In this document: piece by piece, positions 1,797-20,382 of the stretch
Layout of the letters: each line of letters starts with the position of its first letter
How positions within the stretch are numbered: the first letter of the stretch is position 1
DNA from: Candidatus Latescibacterota bacterium
GTDB taxonomy: Bacteria > Latescibacterota > UBA2968 > UBA8231
Length of the DNA: 64,000 nucleotides
Direction of reading: 5' to 3'
NCBI GenBank assembly: GCA_965203175.1
Contig: OZ241867.1
Coordinates: forward strand, 1,120,001-1,184,000
Made by a program: the position numbers and the translations under genes
The notes under the pieces: model-generated
Told to the model about the DNA's origin: nothing
The model's input: the letters and a program-made list of their open reading frames with translations, nothing else
Databases searched by the model: none

Positions 1797-2885
1797 ATGC
1801 CTGCCAAATATCTCGTTGGCGTCATTGCCTCCGGCCGCATTGCTCGCGAGCACGGCCGCGGCTGGGCCGAGTGCGAACACACTGAAATCGCTGCCATTGC
1901 CGACGCGCATCCCGAAGCCTTGGCCAGCTACGCCGCGGATTTCAACGTCGAAAAACAGTATCTCGACTACCGCGAGATGCTCGACGTGGAAAACCTCGAC
2001 ATCGTCAGCGTTTGCTCTTGGGATCCCCAGCACGCGGAAATGTCCATCGCCGCCTGCGCCCGTCGGCCCAAAGCCGTGCTCTGCGAAAAGCCCATGGCCG
2101 TCTCCTTGGGCGAGGCCGAGGCCATGGTCATCGCCGCCGAGCGCAACAACGTCAAGCTAGCCATCGGCCACCAGCGCCGCTTTTACTCTTGTTGGCGCGA
2201 GGCGCGGCGGATGATCGCCGATGGGGCCATTGGCAAGCCGCAGCGGCTGTGGTCCGCGGTTAAGGCCGGGATGATGAACACCGGCACCCACTGCATCGAC
2301 TTCCAGCTCTACGCCCTCGGCGACCCACAAGCCGAATGGGTCATGGGCTCGGTCGAACGCCACACCGACCACTTCGTCTTCGGCCACCGGGTCGAAGACC
2401 GCTGCGTGGGGATCATCGGCTATCCCGACGGGGTCGAAGGCGTGATCGAAAACGAGATGAACGATATTTATCAGGTGGGGGCTACCATCTACGGCGAAGA
2501 CGGCACGATGGTCGTCAGCGACAACAGCCTGCGCTATATGACGGCCACCTCCGGCGGCTGGCAGGAGTTCGAACCCACCGACAAGTCCAGCGGCTACGGC
2601 AACGCCTTCGTGGATCAGGCCTACGGAATCTGCCGCTGGATCGAGGGCGATTTTGAGGACTACTACGGCAAGGCCGAGCACGGCAAAGCCGCCACTGAGA
2701 TTATGATGGGCGTCTATGAATCGGCAAGGCTGCACGAGCGCGTGGCCCTGCCGCTGCAAACCCGCGACAACCCGCTCGACGTCGCCGTCGAAGAGGGGCG
2801 TATGCCCGTCACTCGGCCCGGCCATTGGGACGAGCGCTCCTTTTTGGTGCGCGGCGAGGGCATGAGCTGGATCAGGGACAAATAG
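1797..2885 (+). CDS. Gfo/Idh/MocA family oxidoreductase
   Basis: Rossmann N-terminus, LCEKPMA, GHQRRF, GTHCID. Confidence 0.9.
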   Translation: MPAKYLVGVIASGRIAREHGRGWAECEHTEIAAIADAHPEALASYAADFNVEKQYLDYREMLDVENLDIVSVCSWDPQHAEMSIAACARRPKAVLCEKPMAVSLGEAEAMVIAAERNNVKLAIGHQRRFYSCWREARRMIADGAIGKPQRLWSAVKAGMMNTGTHCIDFQLYALGDPQAEWVMGSVERHTDHFVFGHRVEDRCVGIIGYPDGVEGVIENEMNDIYQVGATIYGEDGTMVVSDNSLRYMTATSGGWQEFEPTDKSSGYGNAFVDQAYGICRWIEGDFEDYYGKAEHGKAATEIMMGVYESARLHERVALPLQTRDNPLDVAVEEGRMPVTRPGHWDERSFLVRGEGMSWIRDK

Positions 2886-2948
2886 GCGGCCCCCATGCGG
2901 CCCCAATGCGGCCCCCATGCGGAGGCCGGACTACTCTGAGGCCGGACT
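2886..2948. repeat. Short intergenic tandem repeats: 3x GCGGCCCC(C/A)AT then 2x GAGGCCGGACT
   Basis: 11-bp units at 2886, 2897, 2908; second unit at 2922 and 2938. Confidence 0.75.
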
Positions 2949-2968
2949 GCACGGAGGACGGAAAGCTC

Positions 2969-3751
2969 ATGCAAATCGGTCTCTTAGTTACCAATCGCCA
3001 ACAGCTTGAAGAGTCCGCCGACTGGGACTTCGACTATCTCGAAGGCTCACCCGGTCTCCTCGGCAGCGATGCAGACGACCCACGAGCGGTCGAGCGCGAG
3101 TTCTTAGCGCTTTTGGAAAAGCACCCGCTCCAGATGAAGACAATGTGCGGTTTTATTGGCGACCCGCAGGGGCGCGGGCTAATGGTCGTCGGCCCCGACG
3201 TGAGCCTGGACCGGCTGCGTACTTTTGTCACGCGAGTCTTCGACCTCATGCAACGGGCCAGAGTCGAGGTCATCGGCTACGGCAGCGGCAGCTCGCGCTG
3301 GGTGCCCGACGGCTTCGACCGCGACAAAGCTCGCCAACAGGTCGCCGATTTCTTGCACCTGTGCGCCGACCTCGGCGAGCCTCGTGGCGTCAAGGTCGCG
3401 CTCGAGCCTTATAACCGCGACGACGCCAACCTGCTCAACACCGTCTCCGAAGCGACCGAATTCATAGAGGGCGTCAACCGCTCGCACGCCAAGCTAATGG
3501 CCGACTTCTTCCACATGAAGCTCAACGGCGAGTCTTTCGACGCGCTCAAAGAAGCCGGGCCACACCTGATCCACGCTCACATTGCCGAACCGGGGCGCGG
3601 CCGACCGCAAACCACGCCAGCCGACCACGCACTTTTTCTACACACCTTGCGCGCATCCGGCTACGATGGGCGCGTAACGCTGAGCGGTGCGCTGCCGGTC
3701 TATGCCGACGATGGCGAAACCGCCATCGCCCTCAAGAAAGCCAGCGCGTGA
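2969..3751 (+). CDS. Sugar phosphate isomerase/epimerase (xylose isomerase-like TIM barrel)
   Basis: GSGSSR, ALEPYN, ADFFHM, HAHIAE; ATG 2969 after GGAGG. Confidence 0.85.
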   Translation: MQIGLLVTNRQQLEESADWDFDYLEGSPGLLGSDADDPRAVEREFLALLEKHPLQMKTMCGFIGDPQGRGLMVVGPDVSLDRLRTFVTRVFDLMQRARVEVIGYGSGSSRWVPDGFDRDKARQQVADFLHLCADLGEPRGVKVALEPYNRDDANLLNTVSEATEFIEGVNRSHAKLMADFFHMKLNGESFDALKEAGPHLIHAHIAEPGRGRPQTTPADHALFLHTLRASGYDGRVTLSGALPVYADDGETAIALKKASA

Positions 3752-4413
3752 AGGTCCCCTCCTTCGCCTACAGCCGCATGGTGGACCTTTCGCGGACTAT
3801 CACGCCGTCGGAAGGTCGCCTCATCCACTACCGCACAGCGCGCGTACCCGTCGATGATCCACCGACCGACCGCTGGTATATCACCACTAGCATTGAAATG
3901 GGCGGTCATGTCGGCACCCATGTCGAAGGGCCTTTACACGCCGTCCAAGACGGCCCGGCCATTGCCGACCTCGATGTCGAGCGCTTTTTTGGCGAGGCCA
4001 TCCTCTTCGACTTTAGCGATGCTCCGTTGGGCGAGCCGCTTTCTCCGGAGCAATTCCAACGGGCCGCCGAACCGGGTGGCGGCGTCCGCCCGGGAGACAT
4101 CGCCCTCTTTCGCTTTGATTGGGATCAACGGGCTACCGCTGGTTCCTATCCGCCTTATCCTTCGACCGAAGCCTTGCGCTGGCTCGTCGAGGCCGGCGTC
4201 AAACTGCTCGGCATCGACACCCCCGGCTTAGACATTCCAGGCGACCGCAGCCTGCCCAACCACCACCTGCTCTTCGCACACGGCATTCCCCTAATCGAGA
4301 GCTTGGACCGCTTGGGCGAACTGCGACAACCGCGCGTTTACCTTTTCGCCCAGCCGCTACCAGCGGCTGAAACCGACGCCATTCCGCTGCGCGTACTCGC
4401 TTTTGAAGGGTAG
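3748..4413 (+). CDS. Cyclase family (kynurenine formamidase-like) protein
   Basis: HVGTHVEGPLH, GIDTP, IESL motifs. Confidence 0.85.
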   Translation: MKVPSFAYSRMVDLSRTITPSEGRLIHYRTARVPVDDPPTDRWYITTSIEMGGHVGTHVEGPLHAVQDGPAIADLDVERFFGEAILFDFSDAPLGEPLSPEQFQRAAEPGGGVRPGDIALFRFDWDQRATAGSYPPYPSTEALRWLVEAGVKLLGIDTPGLDIPGDRSLPNHHLLFAHGIPLIESLDRLGELRQPRVYLFAQPLPAAETDAIPLRVLAFEG

Positions 4414-4447: not shown

Positions 4448-5302
4448 ATGCAAACCCTCACCTCTGCCGAAGCCGATCACTTCCTCACCAAGGGCTATGT
4501 CACCATCCCCGGCTGCTTCACCCGCGACTTTGCCCAGCCTCTCATTGACCATGCCTATACGCGTCTCGGCTACGACCCCGACTACCCCGCCACTTGGACC
4601 GAACCGATCCGCTACTTAGATCACGCTCACAGATTCAAAGTAAAGGACCTGTGTCCTCGAGCTTGGGGCGCGATTTGCGATGTGATGGGCGGCGAGGACC
4701 GCATTGATCCCGCCATTCAGCGACTAGAAACCAAGCATTTCTCTTCGGTCGAATCTTTCCACTGGTCCGACGCTTTCATCATCAACTTCCGCTATGGCGC
4801 CGATGCCCCTTGGCGTCCCCCCGCACCCGACACCGCCCTCTGGCACAAGGACGGCAGCTTCTTCCGCCACTTCTTAGACAGTCCCGAACAGGCTCTGTTG
4901 GTCGTCCTCCAATGGACCGATACCCCGCCCAAGTCCGGCGGCACCTTCGTCGCCTGCGATTCCTTTAGACACGTCGCCCGCTATCTCGCCGACCATCCCG
5001 AGGGCGTCGATCCAGGAGCCTGTAACTTTCTCATCGACCAGTGCCAAGACTTCATTGAGCTTATCGGCCAGACCGGCGATCTGACCCTTCTCCACCCCTT
5101 TACTCTCCACGCTTCCTCCCCCAATCACTCAGGTCGCCCCCGCTTCATGACCAATCCTCCCGTCGCCCTAAAAGAACCCCTAAATTTCAACCGCGAGGAT
5201 CCCGCCGACTTTTCTCTCGTCGAGCGCGGCGTTCTTCAGGCGCTCGGCGTCGATCGCTATGATTTCCAACCCACGGCCCCGAGAGAGTGGTATGGTCTTT
5301 AG
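4448..5302 (+). CDS. Phytanoyl-CoA dioxygenase (PhyH) family protein
   Basis: F..KGYV, WHKDG (HxD), GGT, GDxxLLHP..LH..S.N. Confidence 0.8.
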   Translation: MQTLTSAEADHFLTKGYVTIPGCFTRDFAQPLIDHAYTRLGYDPDYPATWTEPIRYLDHAHRFKVKDLCPRAWGAICDVMGGEDRIDPAIQRLETKHFSSVESFHWSDAFIINFRYGADAPWRPPAPDTALWHKDGSFFRHFLDSPEQALLVVLQWTDTPPKSGGTFVACDSFRHVARYLADHPEGVDPGACNFLIDQCQDFIELIGQTGDLTLLHPFTLHASSPNHSGRPRFMTNPPVALKEPLNFNREDPADFSLVERGVLQALGVDRYDFQPTAPREWYGL

Positions 5303-5337
5303 CGCCATCTTTTCCCGCATCGCCGTGTCATCGTCCA

Positions 5338-6206
5338 CTATGATTCCCAGGGAACGGGGACATTGATCTCCGTGGCAATGCGCTGCAACACGTCGAGGTG
5401 GTCTTCGGTCAGCGGAATACCACTATGCTCGCGTGTTTGCTCGCGTTGCCACTCCAAGCTGCCTGGGACTTCGGCGCTTGCCAGTCCCGGCATGGGGTTT
5501 AGCGACCGGCTCTCGCGCAAAATGCGAGCAAGCTCTGCCTTATACGCCTCCAAGTCGCCCAACCTCGCCACATCAATCGCCACCAGCGTAAATGCCCGCG
5601 TGGCACTTGCAAATTTTGGTCTGCTCGATTCAGGCGTCGCCGTGCCCGCTAAAATGCCCGCCAAGAACCACGACGTAAATCGCATCCCCAAACTCTTGAA
5701 AACAAAGTCTGGAAATGTCTGCAGTGCTTCGGCGAGTTTGCTGCGGTCTTTCAACATGTTCGCATTCATATCCAACACAAACGGCGGCCCTTCTGCCGTT
5801 GGAACGCCAAAACACATCGGAGGGGCACCCATCGCATCCCACACTGTTGCATCGGGGTGCGTCGGTTTTTCCCAAGCAACACCTCCCGCCACGGAAAAGG
5901 TCGCCAAGTCGCGCACCAGTGCCAGCCGCGCATAAATCCCCACGCTGCCCACGTGCCCGTGATTGCGCGTACACACAACGGCAATGCCGTTTGCTTTCGC
6001 CTTTTCAATGACGTCCTCTGTCGCCTGCGTTGCCACCAAGTAACCCGCACCGCCGTCGCCGTCAAAAATCGCCATTGAGGGGGCATCCATGATTTGAGCG
6101 ATTTCAGGTCGGGGATTAATACGCCCTTCGCGAAACTCAGCCACATACCGCTGCAACTGGCGCGTGCCGTGCGAGACCACCCCGCGCAAATCCACATCCA
6201 CCAGAT
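5338..6206 (-). pseudogene. Ldh_2 family oxidoreductase, 3' part; interrupted by IS1595-family element
   Basis: DLRGVVSHG, RNHGHVG, VLDM motifs; missing N-terminus lies at 11617-11745 and rejoins in frame (…ARYLV|DVDLRG…). Confidence 0.9.
6199..6206. repeat. Target-site duplication (left) CACCAGAT
   Basis: Identical to 11617-11624. Confidence 0.92.
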
Positions 6207-6229
6207 GGGAATAATATACTATTTTGCCC
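6207..6229 (+). repeat. Left terminal inverted repeat
   Basis: Imperfect inverted complement of 11594-11616. Confidence 0.9.
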
Positions 6230-6281
6230 CAATTCTCGCGTAACCCTCTTATTTTTCAACTAAATCCTTAGTTTTCACTCC

Positions 6282-6310
6282 TTGCCTTGCCCGTCGTTGT
6301 TTCTTACCTT
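6282..6310 (+). promoter_or_regulatory. Putative sigma70 promoter TTGCCT-17-TACCTT
   Basis: Correct spacing; predicted start (~6317) coincides with the 5' end of a long stem. Confidence 0.45.
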
Positions 6311-6317
6311 TACTCTT

Positions 6318-6466
6318 GTCTGACTTCCTTTGCAGAGACCCCGCGTTGCTACTTGGCAATGTCGGGTCATCTGCTGAATACAACAGCCGAGACCCGGCAA
6401 GGGGTAGCGCCCCGCGCTGCGGCGAATAGGCAGAGCTTCTTCTGTTCTCTGCAGAGGACGTTGGAC
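6318..6466 (+). ncRNA. Candidate structured RNA of unknown family
   Basis: 21-nt closing stem 6318-6338/6446-6466 (20 pairs incl. 3 G-U, 1 mismatch) enclosing several internal stems, e.g. 6360-6368/6391-6399. Confidence 0.55.
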
Positions 6467-6565
6467 TGGCCCGGCCTTCCCATCGAAGGCCCTCGCCTGC
6501 TTCCGTCCAAGGGGTAGGCGACCACACGCTGGCTATTCATAACTCCCGTCCAAGGAGTGTCCATC

Positions 6566-7189
6566 ATGGTTCGCCATCTCGCCATCGTTATCGTATTCTG
6601 CGCTCATTCTATTATAGGCTGTGCAATAACCACAGACCCTAATAAGCCTAATACGTTCAAAAACGGGGAATCGTGGCACTTTATACAAAACGACAAGGCA
6701 CTTAGTCTTATATCTGCTCCAGCAGCATATTTAGGATCATTGTCGTATATAAACATTATATGTCATTATGGGGTATCCAGTATCTCTAATGACTGTATCA
6801 CGATGCTCAATTTTGTTACTTATCCCCAAAATTATGGAACCTTCCCTACGCTTGAACCTATTGAGGTAGTAGTGATGTTTACCAAGAATAAGACTAATGA
6901 TAGGCGACTATTTACTTTTTATTCGTTCAGGAAAGGCTTGATGTTATCGCCAGAACACGTAGATGAATTTATCGATTCAATATCGTCGTCCGATAAAGTG
7001 GCTTTTGGTTTAAGGTGGAAAAAAATACAAGCCACCCGCGACACGCATCACAGTGCCGCTTTTCAATTTAATCTCCAGAAAACAGAAATCGCAATCAAAC
7101 GATTTAAGAGTTTGGTTTTGACCAAGACTAAAAAGGGGAAAACTAAGATCAAACGAAAAGCTGCCGATATTGTAAGGGATTATTTGTAG
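6566..7189 (+). CDS. Hypothetical exported/lipoprotein (IS passenger)
   Basis: RBS AAGGAG 8 nt before ATG; hydrophobic N-terminus with lipobox-like IIGC. Confidence 0.6.
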   Translation: MVRHLAIVIVFCAHSIIGCAITTDPNKPNTFKNGESWHFIQNDKALSLISAPAAYLGSLSYINIICHYGVSSISNDCITMLNFVTYPQNYGTFPTLEPIEVVVMFTKNKTNDRRLFTFYSFRKGLMLSPEHVDEFIDSISSSDKVAFGLRWKKIQATRDTHHSAAFQFNLQKTEIAIKRFKSLVLTKTKKGKTKIKRKAADIVRDYL

Positions 7190-7219
7190 GCGGCACGGAG
7201 ATAAAGGCTCCGTGCCGCC
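7189..7219. terminator. 12-bp perfect GC hairpin, no U-tract
   Basis: GGCGGCACGGAG-ATAAAGG-CTCCGTGCCGCC directly after stop codon. Confidence 0.45.
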
Positions 7220-7253
7220 AAGCCATCACCCATAACCATAGGAGGAACAGACG

Positions 7254-7532
7254 ATGGCCGAAAATGAGCGTATAGAAAAACTTGAAGCCAATATAGGAAG
7301 CCTTATGGGACACATTGCCATACTGCGTCTTATAAACTTTCAGCTAGTGGAGCATGTTAAAGCAGACTGCGAGGCCGAGTTTTCCCTAATGCTTTCTACT
7401 TTACAAAAAGCGCAGAAATACCACGCAGAAAACGCCGAACAATACCAGACTCCTTATTACAACGAACTCGCTGACGCGTTCTCTGATACACTGGATCATC
7501 TCCAAGGAACTCGTCTGCCGTCACTGGATTGA
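7254..7532 (+). CDS. Small helical hypothetical protein (IS passenger)
   Basis: Strong RBS AGGAGGA; 92-aa ORF. Confidence 0.55.
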   Translation: MAENERIEKLEANIGSLMGHIAILRLINFQLVEHVKADCEAEFSLMLSTLQKAQKYHAENAEQYQTPYYNELADAFSDTLDHLQGTRLPSLD

Positions 7533-7657
7533 ACGGAACAAACTCCGAATTAGGCACTCGCCTCCGATACTCGCGCAGAATATGGACACTATCTTTTTTT
7601 GACAACATAATGCATCTCCTTGTGTGGAGTATGAGTGAAACTGCTCTCATAAATACC

Positions 7658-7693
7658 AAAGCCCCACGTCATAATAACATGACGTGGGGCTTT
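7658..7693. terminator. Bidirectional intrinsic terminator-like hairpin
   Basis: 15-bp perfect stem AAAGCCCCACGTCAT/ATGACGTGGGGCTTT between convergent genes. Confidence 0.7.
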
Positions 7694-7720
7694 ATTTTTA
7701 TATATTTTAATATAGGATGA

Positions 7721-7861
7721 CTATTTCTTGTCGTCTTTCTGATCTTTCTTGTCTTGCTTGGGTTTATTACGGAGATCGGACACAGGAGTATCGGCACACC
7801 TCTTGAGTAATTCTTCAGGGGTCAGATTAATCTTTACTCTGGGCGATTTATTCTTTGCCAT
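7721..7861 (-). CDS. 46-aa basic protein overlapping the transposase 3' end
   Basis: MAKNKSPRVKINLTPEELLKRCADTPVSDLRNKPKQDKKDQKDDKK; not in ORF track, read manually. Confidence 0.5.
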   Translation of the reverse strand: MAKNKSPRVKINLTPEELLKRCADTPVSDLRNKPKQDKKDQKDDKK

Positions 7862-8765
7862 TACATGATACCTTAACGCGAACCCCCTGCGAACTGTCTA
7901 GCAGTTTATTCACCTTCTCCGGTGGCTCCATATCTTTGGCATTTTGTCGAAAGGCGAACTCGGCCAAGTAAAAGTCCATATACTTCTTGCTCCAGTGGTG
8001 GAACGTGCCCCGATATCCGCGCCGCAATAATGCCCACATGGATTCAATGCCGTTGACGTGGACATCACCCTCCGCATATCGCTTCCTTGAATGATTGATC
8101 GTCTTATGATCGTAGCTTTCGCTAAGACCATTATAGCCCGAATTTTCGTCCGTGTAAAGGGTTGACCCCTCTTTGGCGTGACGGCGAATAAAGTCATGTA
8201 AGGCTTTCATATTCGCAAAGGAAACGTGCTCATATCTAACCTTGCCGTTACGACCACGCATACCCACAACGGGCATCTTACCCGCTCCACCACGCGCCGT
8301 GGGGTCTTTCTTATCAAAGTGCTTCCACTTCTGCTGGCCACCCATATACACCTCATCAACTTCCACCTCCCCACTTAGCTGTTCCTGCTCTTCGGCATCG
8401 TTTCCAGCGGCAGCACGTAACCGCGTCAACATACGCCATGCCGTCTTTTGCGAAACGTCTATGGTGCGAGCCAGTTGGTAGCTGCTTATCCCCTTGGGCG
8501 AATTGGTCGTGAGCCAAACTGCGGCGTACCACTTCCTAAGCGGAATATTGCTCCCCTCAAATACCGTGCCCTTACGTACCGAGAACGTATAACGACAATC
8601 ACCACAGCGAAACTGGCCATCCGATCTTTTATAGATGCGAGAGGAGTTGCAACGCAAGCATTGAGCGCCGTCCGGCCACCTCACCTTAGCAAAGTGGTCA
8701 ATGCACTTCTGCTCGGTATCAAACTCCCATAATAGGGCGACAAGGCTTTTAGCTTCGATTTTCAT
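7848..8765 (-). CDS. IS1595-family transposase
   Basis: RWPDG+CxxC…CxxC zinc ribbon, GTVFE, VSQKTAW, EVDE.Y.GG, YTDE, H.NGIES.W..LRR, YLAEFAFR.N. Confidence 0.95.
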   Translation of the reverse strand: MKIEAKSLVALLWEFDTEQKCIDHFAKVRWPDGAQCLRCNSSRIYKRSDGQFRCGDCRYTFSVRKGTVFEGSNIPLRKWYAAVWLTTNSPKGISSYQLARTIDVSQKTAWRMLTRLRAAAGNDAEEQEQLSGEVEVDEVYMGGQQKWKHFDKKDPTARGGAGKMPVVGMRGRNGKVRYEHVSFANMKALHDFIRRHAKEGSTLYTDENSGYNGLSESYDHKTINHSRKRYAEGDVHVNGIESMWALLRRGYRGTFHHWSKKYMDFYLAEFAFRQNAKDMEPPEKVNKLLDSSQGVRVKVSCNGKE

Positions 8766-8775
8766 AACACCATGT

Positions 8776-8804
8776 AATATAACAATTTACGAGTATTTTG
8801 TCAA
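8776..8804 (-). promoter_or_regulatory. Transposase promoter TTGACA-17-TATATT
   Basis: Near-consensus; -10 is 10 nt from ATG, so a near-leaderless mRNA. Confidence 0.65.
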
Positions 8805-8902
8805 GCTGAACACTTGTTCATTTTAGTTATAAGACTTGACAGGGAAAATAGATTAGCTATTGGCCCCAGTAACCTCTTGACGATGTTCAATCGATCTTTA
8901 TA

Positions 8903-9172
8903 ATGGAGCATCAAGACTATACGTGCGCCGTCTGTGGCGAGCGGCTGGAACAGGCAGGGGCCGAGTTAGATCACAAGGTGCCTATTCATCTCGGCGGGTC
9001 TAACCACGTCAGCAACTTCCAAGCGACGCACAGGGCATGCAACAGATCCCGGTCGTATCGGGCGGATTTGATATGGGCGCGGCCAGAGCAGGTGGGTGGC
9101 GACGGAAAGCGGAAGTACTACTGGAGCAAGAAAGACGTGGAGGAACTAGTAACAATACTGGCGCGGGCTTGA
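8903..9172 (+). CDS. Minimal HNH endonuclease
   Basis: CAVCG…ELDHKVP..LGGSN..SNFQ..H..CN. Confidence 0.8.
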   Translation: MEHQDYTCAVCGERLEQAGAELDHKVPIHLGGSNHVSNFQATHRACNRSRSYRADLIWARPEQVGGDGKRKYYWSKKDVEELVTILARA

Positions 9173-9197
9173 CAGAATTAGCCTGCAACCGTATAAT
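9169..9197 (+). promoter_or_regulatory. Perfect sigma70 promoter TTGACA-17-TATAAT
   Basis: Exact consensus at 9169-9174 and 9192-9197. Confidence 0.85.
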
Positions 9198-9200
9198 AAA

Positions 9201-9336
9201 ATAGGCTTGGAGTAGCCCCAAGCTACCGCAAGCCTATAGCGCAACTCCTTGTGACACAACAAGTTAGCCAACCGAAAGGAGATGCTTATACCACACAGGA
9301 TAACGAATTAAACCGATAGGCGCAAGGGCTATTTTT
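9201..9336 (+). ncRNA. Structured leader or small RNA
   Basis: Hairpin ATAGGCTTG..GTAGC-CCCAA-GCTAC..CAAGCCTAT (9201-9237); GCAACTCCTT/AAGGAGATGC (9241-9285); weak stem plus T-run near 9316-9336. Confidence 0.4.
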
Positions 9337-9374
9337 CCGTGTCCGTTAATCGGTTTAAAAAGGGAGAATACGAT

Positions 9375-9644
9375 TTGCTTTACATAGTTATTGATATGGA
9401 AACCGAAAATGGCGAAGGCACCCAGACAAGCCTTTACCATAAAATAAACGAGCTTGGTTATACGAATCGTAAGATGACTAGTTCTACCACTATGGTTTCA
9501 TGCGATCAAACAGCAGAAGAGCTGGCAAACAGTATCGGAATCGGAGAAAATAAAAGCAGTGGAGTTGTAAATGCTGTAGAGAATTATTCTGGTTTTGCAG
9601 AAAAAGACTTCGTGTCGTGGTTTAGAATTCACAAGAATAAATAG
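9375..9644 (+). CDS. Small Cas2/GhoS-like ferredoxin-fold protein, copy 1
   Basis: RBS AAGGGAG then TTG; MLYIVID start, beta-alpha-beta pattern, C-terminal YSGF…VSWF; similar to 10779-11039. Confidence 0.55.
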   Translation: MLYIVIDMETENGEGTQTSLYHKINELGYTNRKMTSSTTMVSCDQTAEELANSIGIGENKSSGVVNAVENYSGFAEKDFVSWFRIHKNK

Positions 9645-9651
9645 AATACTT

Positions 9652-10044
9652 ATGGCTAAATTTGACAGTCTTTACGACGACACTGGAGCATATATTGGAC
9701 CGGAAGGAGACGATCCTTTGACAGACAATATGCAACTTATTCATAATCAACTAGCAAGTCTTAACAATAGGCTAAGTAGTATGGATGGAAGATTAAACGC
9801 TATGGATAATAGACTGACAAGTATAGATAATCGTTTAAATTCTTCAGATACACAGACAAGAGATACGGATCAAAAGATTTTTAGTTTATCAAGAAATGTT
9901 TGGATTTTAATTGGTGGAATAATTCTTCTAGGCTGGATTGCAACTCCATTTTTAAATGCTTATGCGAAACAAATATTCTCTTATGAGTCGCAACAGCAGA
10001 CTGTTTCTACAATTAAAAACATGCCGGAAGAAAAGACCGACTAA
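9652..10044 (+). CDS. Coiled-coil plus single TM protein, copy 1
   Basis: Heptads LNNRLSSMDGRLNAMDNRLTSIDNRL then VWILIGGIILLGWIA. Confidence 0.7.
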   Translation: MAKFDSLYDDTGAYIGPEGDDPLTDNMQLIHNQLASLNNRLSSMDGRLNAMDNRLTSIDNRLNSSDTQTRDTDQKIFSLSRNVWILIGGIILLGWIATPFLNAYAKQIFSYESQQQTVSTIKNMPEEKTD

Positions 10045-10068
10045 ACATCTATATTTCGCGGATATAGC

Positions 10069-10103
10069 AAAGCCCCCGTCACAAGGCGTGACAGGGGCGT
10101 TTT
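10069..10103 (+). terminator. Intrinsic terminator-like hairpin
   Basis: GCCCC.GTCAC-AAGGC-GTGAC.GGGGC followed by GTTTT. Confidence 0.6.
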
Positions 10104-10121
10104 AGGTGAGGGAAGGGAAAC

Positions 10122-10159
10122 AGGCTTGATATAGTCCCTCACTGCTCTATATCAAGCCT
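10122..10159. repeat. 13-bp perfect inverted repeat
   Basis: AGGCTTGATATAG…CTATATCAAGCCT; shares AGGCTTG/CAAGCCT arms with the hairpin at 9203-9235. Confidence 0.7.
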
Positions 10160-10474
10160 TGTGGTATGCTTAGGACGTCTTGCTCGTCCATCGGTGCCAC
10201 CTCCTTTCTTTTATGGGATGCTGGAGTCTTGACCTTCAGCATCCCTGCTTTAATCATGCTCAGATCGAAACGGAAGGCGTTGATTCTGTCTTGCGACTTG
10301 TTCTTCACAGTCGATCATCGCCTTGCTCAACCTGCGATACGCTTTAGTCGAGAGTCGCTGAGTTTTGCGCGTTGCTCTTCTGTATAGCGAATCAAGTTTT
10401 AGATATCCCATATCGTCGTCTCCTTTTACGTATCTAATATACGCCCGATGTCGTCGCACCTGCAAGACTGGGGG

Positions 10475-10584
10475 CGTTTTTGGGGACCATTCTACTTTTC
10501 AGTCTTTTTCCTCTCTCGACATGGTCGTCCTAAGTGCTGTAAAAACAATGACATAATCGCCTGGGCAAATATACCTATTCTCCC
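10475..10584. mobile_element. Internal, diverged copy of the element's right end
   Basis: CGTTTT.GGGGACCATTCTAC and TGAC.TA.…CCTGGGCAA…CCC at the same spacing (103 vs 104 nt) as in 11506-11616. Confidence 0.8.
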
Positions 10585-10778
10585 TGCTCCTTCGCCCACC
10601 TAACCCCCTCTTTTCTGGGCCATTTCCCTTTAAATAACGCTATGGAGTTCAACCCTGTCCCTTGAGGCAACCTAATATATAAACCGTTGTTTCTATTACA
10701 TTTATGCAGCAGACTTGACAACAACCTTGCTCTTCCGCATCTTATCAGTCCCCAATAATACCTGCAAGGATATATTAG

Positions 10779-11039
10779 ATGGTGTATGCCATATCATGCG
10801 ACGACGTAAGCAGACTAAATAGCCTGTACATACTGCTTAGTCATCGTTATCTTTCTCATTTAGAATCATCTCCAAATATTTTGTTCGTCTCTGCTCCTAA
10901 GACAGCTAAAGAGATTTATGACGAGATCGCTGCAGAGGAGGGAGAAGGAGCGACAATAGTTATTTTAGGCATACAAACATACTATGGGTGGGCTTCTCCC
11001 CAATTATGGGAATGGCTACATGTCCAGCTCAGAGCCTGA
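10779..11039 (+). CDS. Small Cas2/GhoS-like ferredoxin-fold protein, copy 2
   Basis: MVYAISCD…KTAKEIYDEI…YYGWASPQLWEWL; TTGACA at 10715 and RBS AAGGA upstream. Confidence 0.6.
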   Translation: MVYAISCDDVSRLNSLYILLSHRYLSHLESSPNILFVSAPKTAKEIYDEIAAEEGEGATIVILGIQTYYGWASPQLWEWLHVQLRA

Positions 11040-11310
11040 TAGAAATCAATCGGGAAAGCCCGATGATCAGAAAACTAGTCCTCCTGAAATAATAGGGGAT
11101 GTAGGCCCTTGGATATTAAAGAGTTTCAATGATTTAAATGAACGATTTGACTCTATTGACGGCAGACTGGATAGCATCGACAAAAATATAAAGTGGCTTA
11201 ACAGACTCGCGTGGTTCGTTATTGCTTGCGTGGCTATCTTTATTTTTATCTGTTTCATGTTTATTCGACCAGCCATCCCTTTCGTTCTAAAAAAGCTATT
11301 CCCCGGCTAA
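11020..11310 (+). CDS. Coiled-coil plus single TM protein, copy 2
   Basis: LNERFDSIDGRLDSIDKNI then AWFVIACVAIFIFICFMFI; overlaps upstream gene. Confidence 0.7.
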   Translation: MSSSEPDRNQSGKPDDQKTSPPEIIGDVGPWILKSFNDLNERFDSIDGRLDSIDKNIKWLNRLAWFVIACVAIFIFICFMFIRPAIPFVLKKLFPG

Positions 11311-11316
11311 TTTTTC

Positions 11317-11345
11317 TTGACGTGGTTCATCTGTAGTGCGATAAT
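11317..11345 (+). promoter_or_regulatory. Promoter TTGACG-17-GATAAT with extended TG
   Basis: Read directly. Confidence 0.6.
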
Positions 11346-11399
11346 AAAAGCAAGAATATATGGCTTTTGAATAATATAAATCTCCTCTATGGAGATTCG

Positions 11400-11486
11400 A
11401 TGGCCAATATAGTAATTATCATAAAGTTGGCACTATCGCATTTATTCAACGACCCCAACCTAAACGATCACGTCTCCCAAGAGTAA
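11400..11486 (+). CDS. Possible 28-aa peptide MANIVIIIKLALSHLFNDPNLNDHVSQE
   Basis: Own promoter; GGAG RBS within AATCTCC/GGAGATT stem. Confidence 0.3.
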   Translation: MANIVIIIKLALSHLFNDPNLNDHVSQE

Positions 11487-11593
11487 TATCCCTCTTTCTC
11501 TTCGTCGTTTTAGGGGACCATTCTACGTCATCTTCTTTTTCTCCCCGAATATCCTCTCTCGTAACTATCTCTCTAACAGTGACTTATCGGCCT

Positions 11594-11616
11594 GGGCAAG
11601 ATAGTGCCTTATTCCC
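11594..11616 (-). repeat. Right terminal inverted repeat
   Basis: GGGCAAGATAGTGCCTTATTCCC followed by the TSD. Confidence 0.9.
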
Positions 11617-11745
11617 CACCAGATAGCGCGCAACCAACGCAGCATCGCCGTCGGGCAAATCGACTTTACACAGCACTTCGGTGGTAAAATCGCGCAACAT
11701 ATCCGGCATGATGCGCCTAGCGTCTTCGGGCACATAAACAGGCAT
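11617..11745 (-). pseudogene. Ldh_2 family oxidoreductase, 5' part
   Basis: RBS GAGGAG; MPVYVPEDARRIMPDMLRDFTTEVLCKVDLPDGDAALVARYLV. Confidence 0.9.
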
Positions 11746-11766
11746 GAAAGCCTCTCCTCTAAGTCG

Positions 11767-12786
11767 TCAGAAATCGTTCCTTACTTTCTCCGGCATCCCC
11801 GAACGGAGCGAATCCCAACACGCTAGTCCTGTGGCGACGACCCTAGCCCCTTCGCGGACGCCGACCCAAGGCTTTGCGCCGTTCAGGACGCAATCTGCCA
11901 TGTGCCGCAGCATGACGATCATCTCGCTGGCGTGACCTCGCTCCGATGAAAACTCGGCAGTGACCTTGCGCGAGGGCAGGTCGCCGGTGGGATCGAGGCT
12001 CTTTGCGCCATTGAGAATGGTGCCACGGGTCCCGTAAACGGCTAGGCTGTTCGTCGGGATATCGTGCGGGTGTACGATGCCGAGAAAGTTCGCAATGCGT
12101 CCGATCTTGCCGGATATAAACTTCACGTTGATGACGAAGTTGTCCTCTTGGGGATAGTTCGGCGCAACGCCACTGCGCAACCCGTAACAGTGGACTTCGT
12201 CGATATCGCCCATGAACCAGCGCAAAAGATCGATTGGGTGGCAGGCACCGCCCAAGATCAGGTCTTGCGGCATCTCAACTCGCCAAGGGGAGTAGTCATA
12301 GACCGGGCGGAGATCGTGAACGTAGTGGGACTCGGCCATGAAGAGCTCGCCGATTTCTCCAGCGTCGCAGGCGCGCTTCGCTTCGATGAAATCATACCTC
12401 CCGCGCAGACTCTGCGTGACGAGCAGCACTTTGCCCGACCGGTCAACAGCTTCCACAACCTGCTCCACTTCTTCCATAGTGTACACCATCGACTTGGTGA
12501 CCATCACGTGCTTGCCCGCGTCGAGCGCGGTCAGGATCTGTTGCGCGTGAAGCGGTCCAGGCGTGTAGATGCCGATGATGTCGAGGTCGCTGCGCGCGAC
12601 CAATTCGTCGAAATCAGATGTCAGAGCGTCGATCCCAAATTCGCAGCCGAGCGCTTCGAGCTTGTCCTGCCGCGCATCGCACAGAGCGGTGACGCGAACC
12701 GGTAAGCTGCTGTTTTCCGGCTGATTGGCACCAAGCAGCGTTCTGCCGTGGCCAAGCCCGGCGACGCCGATGCTGAGTTGACTCAT
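11767..12786 (-). CDS. Gfo/Idh/MocA family oxidoreductase
   Basis: GVAGLGHG, TPGPLH, GKHVMVTKS, GACHPID. Confidence 0.9.
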   Translation of the reverse strand: MSQLSIGVAGLGHGRTLLGANQPENSSLPVRVTALCDARQDKLEALGCEFGIDALTSDFDELVARSDLDIIGIYTPGPLHAQQILTALDAGKHVMVTKSMVYTMEEVEQVVEAVDRSGKVLLVTQSLRGRYDFIEAKRACDAGEIGELFMAESHYVHDLRPVYDYSPWRVEMPQDLILGGACHPIDLLRWFMGDIDEVHCYGLRSGVAPNYPQEDNFVINVKFISGKIGRIANFLGIVHPHDIPTNSLAVYGTRGTILNGAKSLDPTGDLPSRKVTAEFSSERGHASEMIVMLRHMADCVLNGAKPWVGVREGARVVATGLACWDSLRSGMPEKVRNDF

Positions 12787-20322: not shown

Positions 20323-20382
20323 GGATAAATTACCTTGTAATAATACATTTTAAGTGGATAAATTGCCTTGTAATAATACATT
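20323..20382. repeat. 27-bp direct repeat x2 (33-bp period) upstream of ATPase
   Basis: GGATAAATT(A/G)CCTTGTAATAATACATT at 20323 and 20356. Confidence 0.85.

Follow-up and report, generated by a model that had tools for sequence, protein, structure and literature searches.

Two copies of a two-gene module in one transposon

We analysed a window of 64,000 nucleotides, the whole stretch of contig OZ241867.1 taken from a Candidatus Latescibacterota bacterium, and centred the work on two small gene pairs on its forward strand. Each pair encodes a short cytosolic protein, named A here, followed by a coiled-coil membrane protein, named B. An earlier note, made from the letters of the window, had read the pairs as two divergent copies of one module, and this reading held. 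All four open reading frames (ORFs) were recovered: A1 (9375..9644, +) begins with TTG, with a GGGAG 8 nt upstream, and B1 (9652..10044, +) starts 7 nt past the A1 stop; A2 (10779..11039, +) is overlapped over 20 nt by B2 (11020..11310, +). A1 (89 aa) and A2 (86 aa) both matched the profile of one family and aligned with 15 identities in 68 positions (E=3e-6, a single comparison). B1 and B2 resembled each other in their heptad stretch alone, with 12 identities in 26 positions (E=6e-5).

Module 1 starts 178 nt downstream of a sigma-70-type promoter, TTGACA-17-TATAAT (9169..9197, +), which agrees with the consensus at 12/12 positions and is a consensus match only. Before module 2, a TTGACA at 10715-10720 is followed by the poor -10 hexamer CATCTT, and the promoter scan made no call. 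The proposal of a TTGACA promoter before each module was thus borne out for the hexamer at both and for a full promoter match at the first only. A GC-rich, terminator-like hairpin of 12 pairs was found by sequence scan 3' of B1 (10072..10098). The ~170-nt leader before A1 contains a 16-nt inverted repeat at the expected transcript start (9201-9237); an Rfam search of 6000-11900, this repeat included, returned nothing at E<=0.1.

Both modules are cargo of an IS1595-type transposon that spans 6207-11616 (5,410 bp). An 8-bp target-site duplication, CACCAGAT, was read from the sequence on the left (6199..6206) and on the right (11617..11624). The left terminal inverted repeat, GGGAATAA...ACTAT.TTGCCC, was identified by motif match (6207..6240, +), and the inverted-repeat motif occurs solely at 6209 (+) and 11614 (-), with 0 mismatches. 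Repeat comparison delimited the right end, including its terminal inverted repeat, at 11500..11616 (-), and a degenerate internal copy of this end, ~81% identical to 11500-11616, lies at 10470..10584 (+); module 2 therefore stands between two right ends. The transposase gene (7848..8765, -) encodes the DDE_Tnp_IS1595 domain and an N-terminal zinc ribbon (Pfam E=9.1e-44 and 7.7e-10) and is single-copy in the genome. Members of the IS1595 family make 8-bp target duplications, and some carry passenger genes, according to ISfinder descriptions.

The insertion interrupts an Ldh_2 gene on the minus strand: 5338-6201 encodes the main part of the protein and 11745-11616 the N-terminus. The empty site was recovered in all nine genus relatives examined, where the flanks are contiguous and overlap by exactly 8 bp; the left flank was matched in 23 of the 30 genomes of the genus. 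Metagenome contigs from two runs contained the filled form as one 5,469-nt contig and an empty joint that skips 5,418 bases. The GC content is 35-48% over 6500-11500 versus ~60% around it. The two diverged copies arrived together as cargo of one transposon. The view that the modules were captured twice by the same insertion sequence (IS) stands in part: they are IS-borne and the right end is duplicated, which fits stepwise growth of one element. The ~115-bp direct repeats flanking module 2 also prompted a reading as an integron cassette, which was rejected because these repeats copy the transposon right end.

The A proteins form an unnamed family

The profile query comprised A2, its three relatives and A1, and an exhaustive search with it gave 241 cluster representatives at E<=0.001, an unnamed family of ~88 aa. 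Among the 150 matches listed, most were 82-120 aa long and aligned end to end. Word-based homology search had returned just three relatives for A2 (57-68% identity) and none for A1, so A1 was placed in the family solely through profile searches. Run against the genome, the family model matched A2 at 9.7e-23 and A1 at 9.7e-20. The alignment comprised 146 sequences, after 8 of 149 new identifiers had been dropped for aberrant length; two of these eight were long proteins with seven weak repeats.

The proteins P0018 (699 aa) and P0138 (1213 aa) each met the A profile through seven weak stretches, and designed pentatricopeptide repeat proteins met it the same way in a PDB sequence search with the family profile. 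No single stretch of the designed proteins passed, and these matches were set aside as repeat artefacts; weak UreE and TrmB matches in the same search were also rejected. In A, it is probably the helix 2 region that mimics a helical repeat.

None of 50 A members matched a credible Pfam family, with one stray match at E=0.0075, and A1 and A2 gave nothing noteworthy in PADLOC, PHROGs or NCBIfam. Ten A clusters were looked up, and all were nameless save one labelled 'hypothetical protein'. A is a small cytosolic protein with no signal peptide and no membrane helix.

Conservation across the 146 sequences was highest at G73 (146), W82 (145), W80 (142), Y71 (135) and T46 (128), followed by E81 (109), G55 (105) and A75 (101). 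The main conserved residues are aromatic or glycine (Y71, G73, W80, W82), plus T46 and E81, on the strand 4-helix 3 element. The motifs singled out by eye in the earlier note (TAEEL/TAKEI and YSGF..SWF / YYGW..EWL) fall on the most conserved columns of the family. The N-terminal consensus is M-(I/V/L)-(F/Y)-(A/V)-(V/I), which A1 fits. A2 carries the full Y-x-G-x-A...L-W-E-W-L motif; A1 has V-S in place of W80-E81, two near-invariant family residues. No Arg, His or Asp column is conserved in this alignment, and the suggestion that A is an RNase found no support. From these residues we infer that the Y-x-G-x-A-x3-L-W-E-W-L element would be a binding surface, not an active site.

A has a predicted ferredoxin-like fold and no demonstrable kinship with Cas2

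AlphaFold modelled A1 with a pLDDT of 90.7 and a pTM of 0.81 from the 146 sequences, and A2 with a pLDDT of 75.7 from five sequences; the order of elements was the same. Both models have the ferredoxin-like order beta-alpha-beta-beta-alpha-beta, followed by a helix at the C-terminus. Foldseek searches of the PDB with these models gave no match at E<=0.001, and TM-scores were ~0.4-0.63. The matches were all ferredoxin-fold proteins, among them MzrA, the TyrR ACT domain, PstA/SbtB (PII-like), HMA domains, UreE, CheA P2, the Cas2/VapD-like BPSL1038 and one Cas2. BPSL1038 (7vxr) led the listed matches of the A2 search by query-normalised TM-score (0.63) and tied for first place with Cas-unrelated folds in the A1 search (0.56); its E-values were only 0.05-0.07. 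Foldseek against viral models found nothing at E<=0.001. In the ESM Atlas, one neighbour cluster (score 0.84) had CRISPR_Cas2 in 10% of its members, which we treat as a lead only.

Profile comparison pointed away from Cas2. The 146 A sequences aligned with 12 Cas2 proteins from genomes of the phylum gave a probability of 0.2% in hhalign, and 0/50 A members matched any Cas2, VapD or GhoS Pfam model. The call by eye of a Cas2/VapD/GhoS fold therefore held for the fold class but not beyond it, because only generic ferredoxin-fold matches were obtained. The hydrophobic strand ending in Asp fared similarly: Asp is present in A1 and A2, and the family column at the end of strand 1 is mostly Pro (34), Ser (30) or Ala (28) among 145 sequences. 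Cas2 has a conserved acidic residue at this place. The absence of cas genes and of an array was corroborated: the window contains no CRISPR-like array, and the Cas2 Pfam model (PF09827), which matches 42 of 121 sampled genomes of the phylum, has zero matches across the whole genome from which the window was taken. No Cas family is among the 25 commonest neighbour families of A-B loci.

A and B are paired across genomes and evolve under constraint

For the neighbourhood comparison, A loci were sampled by a pattern scan of species-representative genomes (17 loci) and by profile search of 168 genomes of the phylum (30 loci); after duplicate removal, 37 distinct loci from several phyla remained. 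A first genome scan with an A2-centred alignment had given no match. An ORF was counted as B-like when it lay on the same strand, ended 120-800 nt past the A stop and had a hydrophobic helix within 30 residues of its C-terminus. Such an ORF followed A in 28 of the 37 loci, whereas this rule picked out 18 of 182 control ORFs taken from these loci. The pairing thus exceeds chance, and the linkage expected in the earlier note is found in other genomes; since the loci are related, no exact probability can be attached to it.

Nine loci failed the rule, three of them with an intact A alone (L004, L017 and L039). In two others, the membrane helix precedes the coil (L007 and L030), one has a truncated B (L034) and two have a truncated A (L019 and L029). 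In the last (L016), A is split by another transposase and a B2-like gene follows; the inserted ORF, at 2873-3991 of that locus, encodes a 372-aa transposase-like protein within A of an otherwise intact pair. The B starts chosen by the script overlapped the A stop by 4 nt in 7/28 pairs and by 8 nt in 6/28, overlaps that suggest translational coupling of A and B. By this pattern, each module would be a translationally coupled two-gene operon.

For the eight of nine locus pairs in which dS was finite, the A genes gave dN/dS values of 0.14-0.36 and the B genes values of 0.20-0.71. Purifying selection acts on both genes, with B evolving faster; pairs of A proteins are on average 30% identical and pairs of B proteins 19%. 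Spurious ORFs were ruled out as an explanation of the A-B genes because of family size, dN/dS and the confident fold. The identity matrices of A and B correlate (Mantel r=0.69, a value reached by 0/2000 permutations and inflated by shared ancestry). Partners are nevertheless sometimes swapped between modules: B2 is 67% identical to the B of L012, with the corresponding A proteins at 35%, and between L042 and L043 the A proteins are 89% identical and the B proteins 38%. Occurrence is patchy, with A matches in 28/168 genomes of the phylum and in 10/30 genomes of the genus of the window, at 1-4 copies per genome.

The B proteins are tail-anchored coiled-coil proteins

B1 (130 aa) starts with an acidic stretch, continues with four RLxx(M/I)Dx heptads and one membrane helix, and ends in a tail of ~25 aa; B2 (96 aa) has a Pro/Asp-rich N-terminus, a short heptad coil and a C-terminal membrane helix. 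The description of the second proteins as heptads followed by one transmembrane helix was accurate, as each has a single hydrophobic helix near its C-terminus. The layout is constant across loci: the N-terminus is rich in Pro, Glu, Ser and Gly, the coil varies in length, and a single helix and a short tail follow. The N-terminus is disordered and acidic or proline-rich; because it is joined to a coil and a single C-terminal membrane helix, we regard B as a tail-anchored membrane protein. GhoT, the membrane partner of GhoS, is a short peptide, unlike B with its coil, one helix and 76-155 aa across loci.

No common family was found across the 28 B proteins. At E<=0.01, weak matches were obtained to DUF7201 (8/28), XhlA (3/28) and CCDC90-like/DUF1640 (2/28), and no literature was found for DUF7201. 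The best XhlA E-value among the 28 was 1.1e-5; against XhlA (PF10779), B1 scored 16.3 bits and B2 11.4 bits, with a curated cut-off of 34.7 bits. B also bears a weak resemblance to phage clusters. When novelty was checked with PADLOC 2.0, A1, A2 and B2 matched 0 families, and B1 matched the coiled-coil stretch of PbeC only (E=2.3e-4).

Mobile and defence genes near A-B pairs

The claim that the pair is mobile was upheld by the IS1595-type transposon with its 8-bp duplication, by the nine empty sites and by the presence of the pair in a Rhizobium prophage. Additionally, of 35 other loci, 5 have IS1595 transposase genes or fragments near the A-B pair. One relative has a canonical IS of 1,271 bp inserted 10 bp past the B stop, with an 8-bp duplication and 43-bp inverted repeats that open in the same way as those of the window element.

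A plasmid of Rhizobium tumorigenes encodes an A homologue that scores 87 bits against the family model and is followed, with the stop/start overlap TAATG, by an unannotated B-like ORF. The flanking genes were assigned through PHROGs to tail, tail fibre, endolysin and internal virion functions, and the pair is on the strand opposite to them. This position, on the opposite strand among prophage genes, is that of a prophage moron. A third small ORF of 87 aa follows the pair on the same strand (5676-5939 of L075); it has two or three hydrophobic helices and no PHROG match.

The 143 neighbour ORFs of 35 loci included no constant third partner. Conflict-type neighbours were three DNA methylases, two AAA_21/AriA-like proteins and two Fic proteins. 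In one locus (L015), a 684-aa HsdM-like ORF (4484-6538), by its translation a type I restriction-modification methylase subunit, lies downstream of the pair, and small overlapping genes upstream of A-B (2918-3495) resemble a toxin-antitoxin pair, from translations only.

Other features of the transposon and the window

The remaining cargo lies on both sides of the transposase gene. To its left are an ORF of 210 aa with a lipoprotein-like N-terminus and no family (6557..7189, +), in which the N-terminal hydrophobic stretch ends in Gly-Cys, and an ORF of 92 aa encoding a helical protein of no family (7254..7532, +); tblastn found no relatives of either in other A-B loci. To its right is a small HNH endonuclease of 89 aa (8903..9172, +; Pfam HNH E=4.7e-8). 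The gap that separates the 92-aa ORF from the transposase gene contains a perfect 15-bp inverted repeat with a T-run at either side (7658-7693), which looks like a two-way terminator.

Two short overlapping ORFs of 53 and 71 aa lie in different frames on the minus strand between the modules (10147-10465). Neither has a Pfam family, and they may be one frameshifted small gene. Just past B2, a promoter-like site at 11317-11345 (TTGACG, 17 nt, TG-GATAAT; 10/12 positions) is directed at the right transposon end and into the disrupted Ldh_2 gene beyond it. Elsewhere in the window, an intergenic region contains a 27-nt AT-rich direct repeat that occurs twice, 33 nt apart (20323-20382).

Interpretation of the A-B pair

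We favour, at a probability of roughly 0.45, the reading that the A-B pair is a mobile conflict module (toxin-antitoxin, abortive infection or exclusion) whose B protein would act at the membrane under the control of A. In the proposed mechanism, B would oligomerise through its coiled coil and act on the cytoplasmic membrane as the effector; A, a non-enzymatic cytosolic partner, would bind the cytoplasmic part of B and either hold B inactive or release it upon a signal. A complex prediction of A2 with residues 1-70 of B2 scored 0.00, in a run made without controls, and weighs neither for nor against this mechanism. A bolder version, that the pairs represent a new and widespread abortive-infection or superinfection-exclusion family in which a non-enzymatic ferredoxin-fold A gates a membrane-collapsing tail-anchored B, spread as IS1595 cargo and prophage morons, is possible but doubtful.

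Several observations weigh against a conflict module. No phenotype of any kind is known for the pair, and neither A nor B has a credible match in PADLOC, Pfam, NCBIfam or PHROGs. The DNA-binding domain that type II antitoxins usually carry is not recognisable in A. An intact A stands without any B-like ORF in 3/37 loci (L004, L017 and L039). Most of the 143 neighbours are housekeeping genes and ~7 are defence-related, raw counts to be read without a background rate. No relatives were found in viral-contig or phage collections: viral contigs and JGI metagenome contigs were scanned, both without a match, with a 10-sequence alignment through one degenerate pattern, which misses most of the family, and a phage collection was searched by tblastn with two family members. 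Finally, module copy 1 may be decaying, as A1, with V-S in place of W80-E81, is the more divergent copy.

In the likeliest alternative, the pair would be non-toxic and would serve membrane tethering in housekeeping or under stress: B would be a tail-anchored scaffold that recruits A as a small ligand-binding or adaptor domain of the ACT/PII kind. ElaB/YqjD-type proteins have a layout comparable to such a scaffold. The top structure matches of A are regulatory ferredoxin-fold domains (MzrA, TyrR ACT, PstA/SbtB, CheA P2), many loci lie amid housekeeping genes, and both proteins are under purifying selection; however, no structure match reaches significance. The pair is scattered unevenly even among genomes of a single genus and can be present as several diverged copies in one genome, it is carried by an IS and a prophage, the modules are low in GC in high-GC hosts, and B turns over fast, with shuffled partners. 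We consider this alternative unlikely.

An accessory function of the mobile element, either control of IS1595 transposition or an XhlA-kind helper in the timing of prophage lysis, is quite improbable. IS1595 genes or fragments do lie beside the pair in the window and in the five other loci, but no such gene is within reach in the other 30 of 35, and the canonical IS of one relative lies outside the pair. The lysis variant draws on the weak XhlA, DUF7201 and phage-cluster resemblances of B, and XhlA is described in a passage of PMC5589764 as a membrane protein thought to act with the holin XhlB; the XhlA scores of B1 and B2 are nevertheless all below the curated cut-off, and in the Rhizobium prophage the endolysin and tail genes lie on the other strand from the pair.

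The weakest alternative, a GhoS/GhoT-like type V toxin-antitoxin in which A is a Cas2-fold endoribonuclease that cleaves the mRNA of a membrane toxin B, is very improbable: in its favour are the gene order, the fold class of the first protein, the BPSL1038 matches and the ESM Atlas lead, and passages of PMC4010927 present GhoS as homologous to Cas2 and GhoT as a toxin acting on the membrane, but they also report that GhoS and Cas2 have five conserved catalytic residues in common, chief among them R28, which A does not match, and the hhalign and Pfam comparisons and the size and layout of B also argue against it.

The A proteins, with hundreds of diverged members, are unnamed in Pfam, NCBIfam, PHROGs, PADLOC and the source annotations seen, and their obligate-looking association with a tail-anchored coiled-coil B is a two-gene unit absent from the libraries and literature searched. 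If the conflict-module reading is true and the pair works in toxin-antitoxin fashion or in defence, a new effector-regulator architecture would be added to those known, and the window would provide a clear case of an insertion sequence with such modules as cargo. The pair in the plasmid prophage of a cultured Rhizobium offers an experimental entry point.

Comparison with known systems

The transposon resembles IS1595-family insertion sequences in its transposase domains, terminal inverted repeats and 8-bp duplication. It differs from them in its 5.4 kb length, in the cargo on both sides of the transposase and in its second, internal right end.

A shares with Cas2, VapD and BPSL1038 the order of secondary-structure elements (7vxr TM-scores of 0.56-0.63). 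In contrast to these proteins, A has no conserved Asp at the end of strand 1, no cas context and an hhalign probability of 0.2%, and it has an extra conserved C-terminal helix that bears the W-E-W motif. Like GhoS/GhoT, the pair is a compact two-gene operon in which the gene of a small ferredoxin-fold protein precedes that of a membrane protein; however, there is no sequence or profile similarity, A lacks conserved catalytic residues, and B is a tail-anchored coiled-coil protein, whereas GhoT is a short lytic peptide.

The XhlA, DUF7201 and CCDC90-like/DUF1640 families share with B a coiled coil followed by one C-terminal membrane helix. The scores of B1 and B2 are all under the curated cut-offs, and B differs further in having no holin or endolysin partner and in being always paired with an A gene. 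None of these families is known to have an A-type partner.

The lambda RexA/RexB system is a two-gene abortive-infection system with a cytosolic sensor and a membrane effector. There is no homology with the A-B pair, and RexB is polytopic whereas B has one helix. The likeness is one of organisation: in both, a soluble partner would control a membrane-acting one, as proposed here for A and B, and the gene pair is borne by a prophage or other mobile element.

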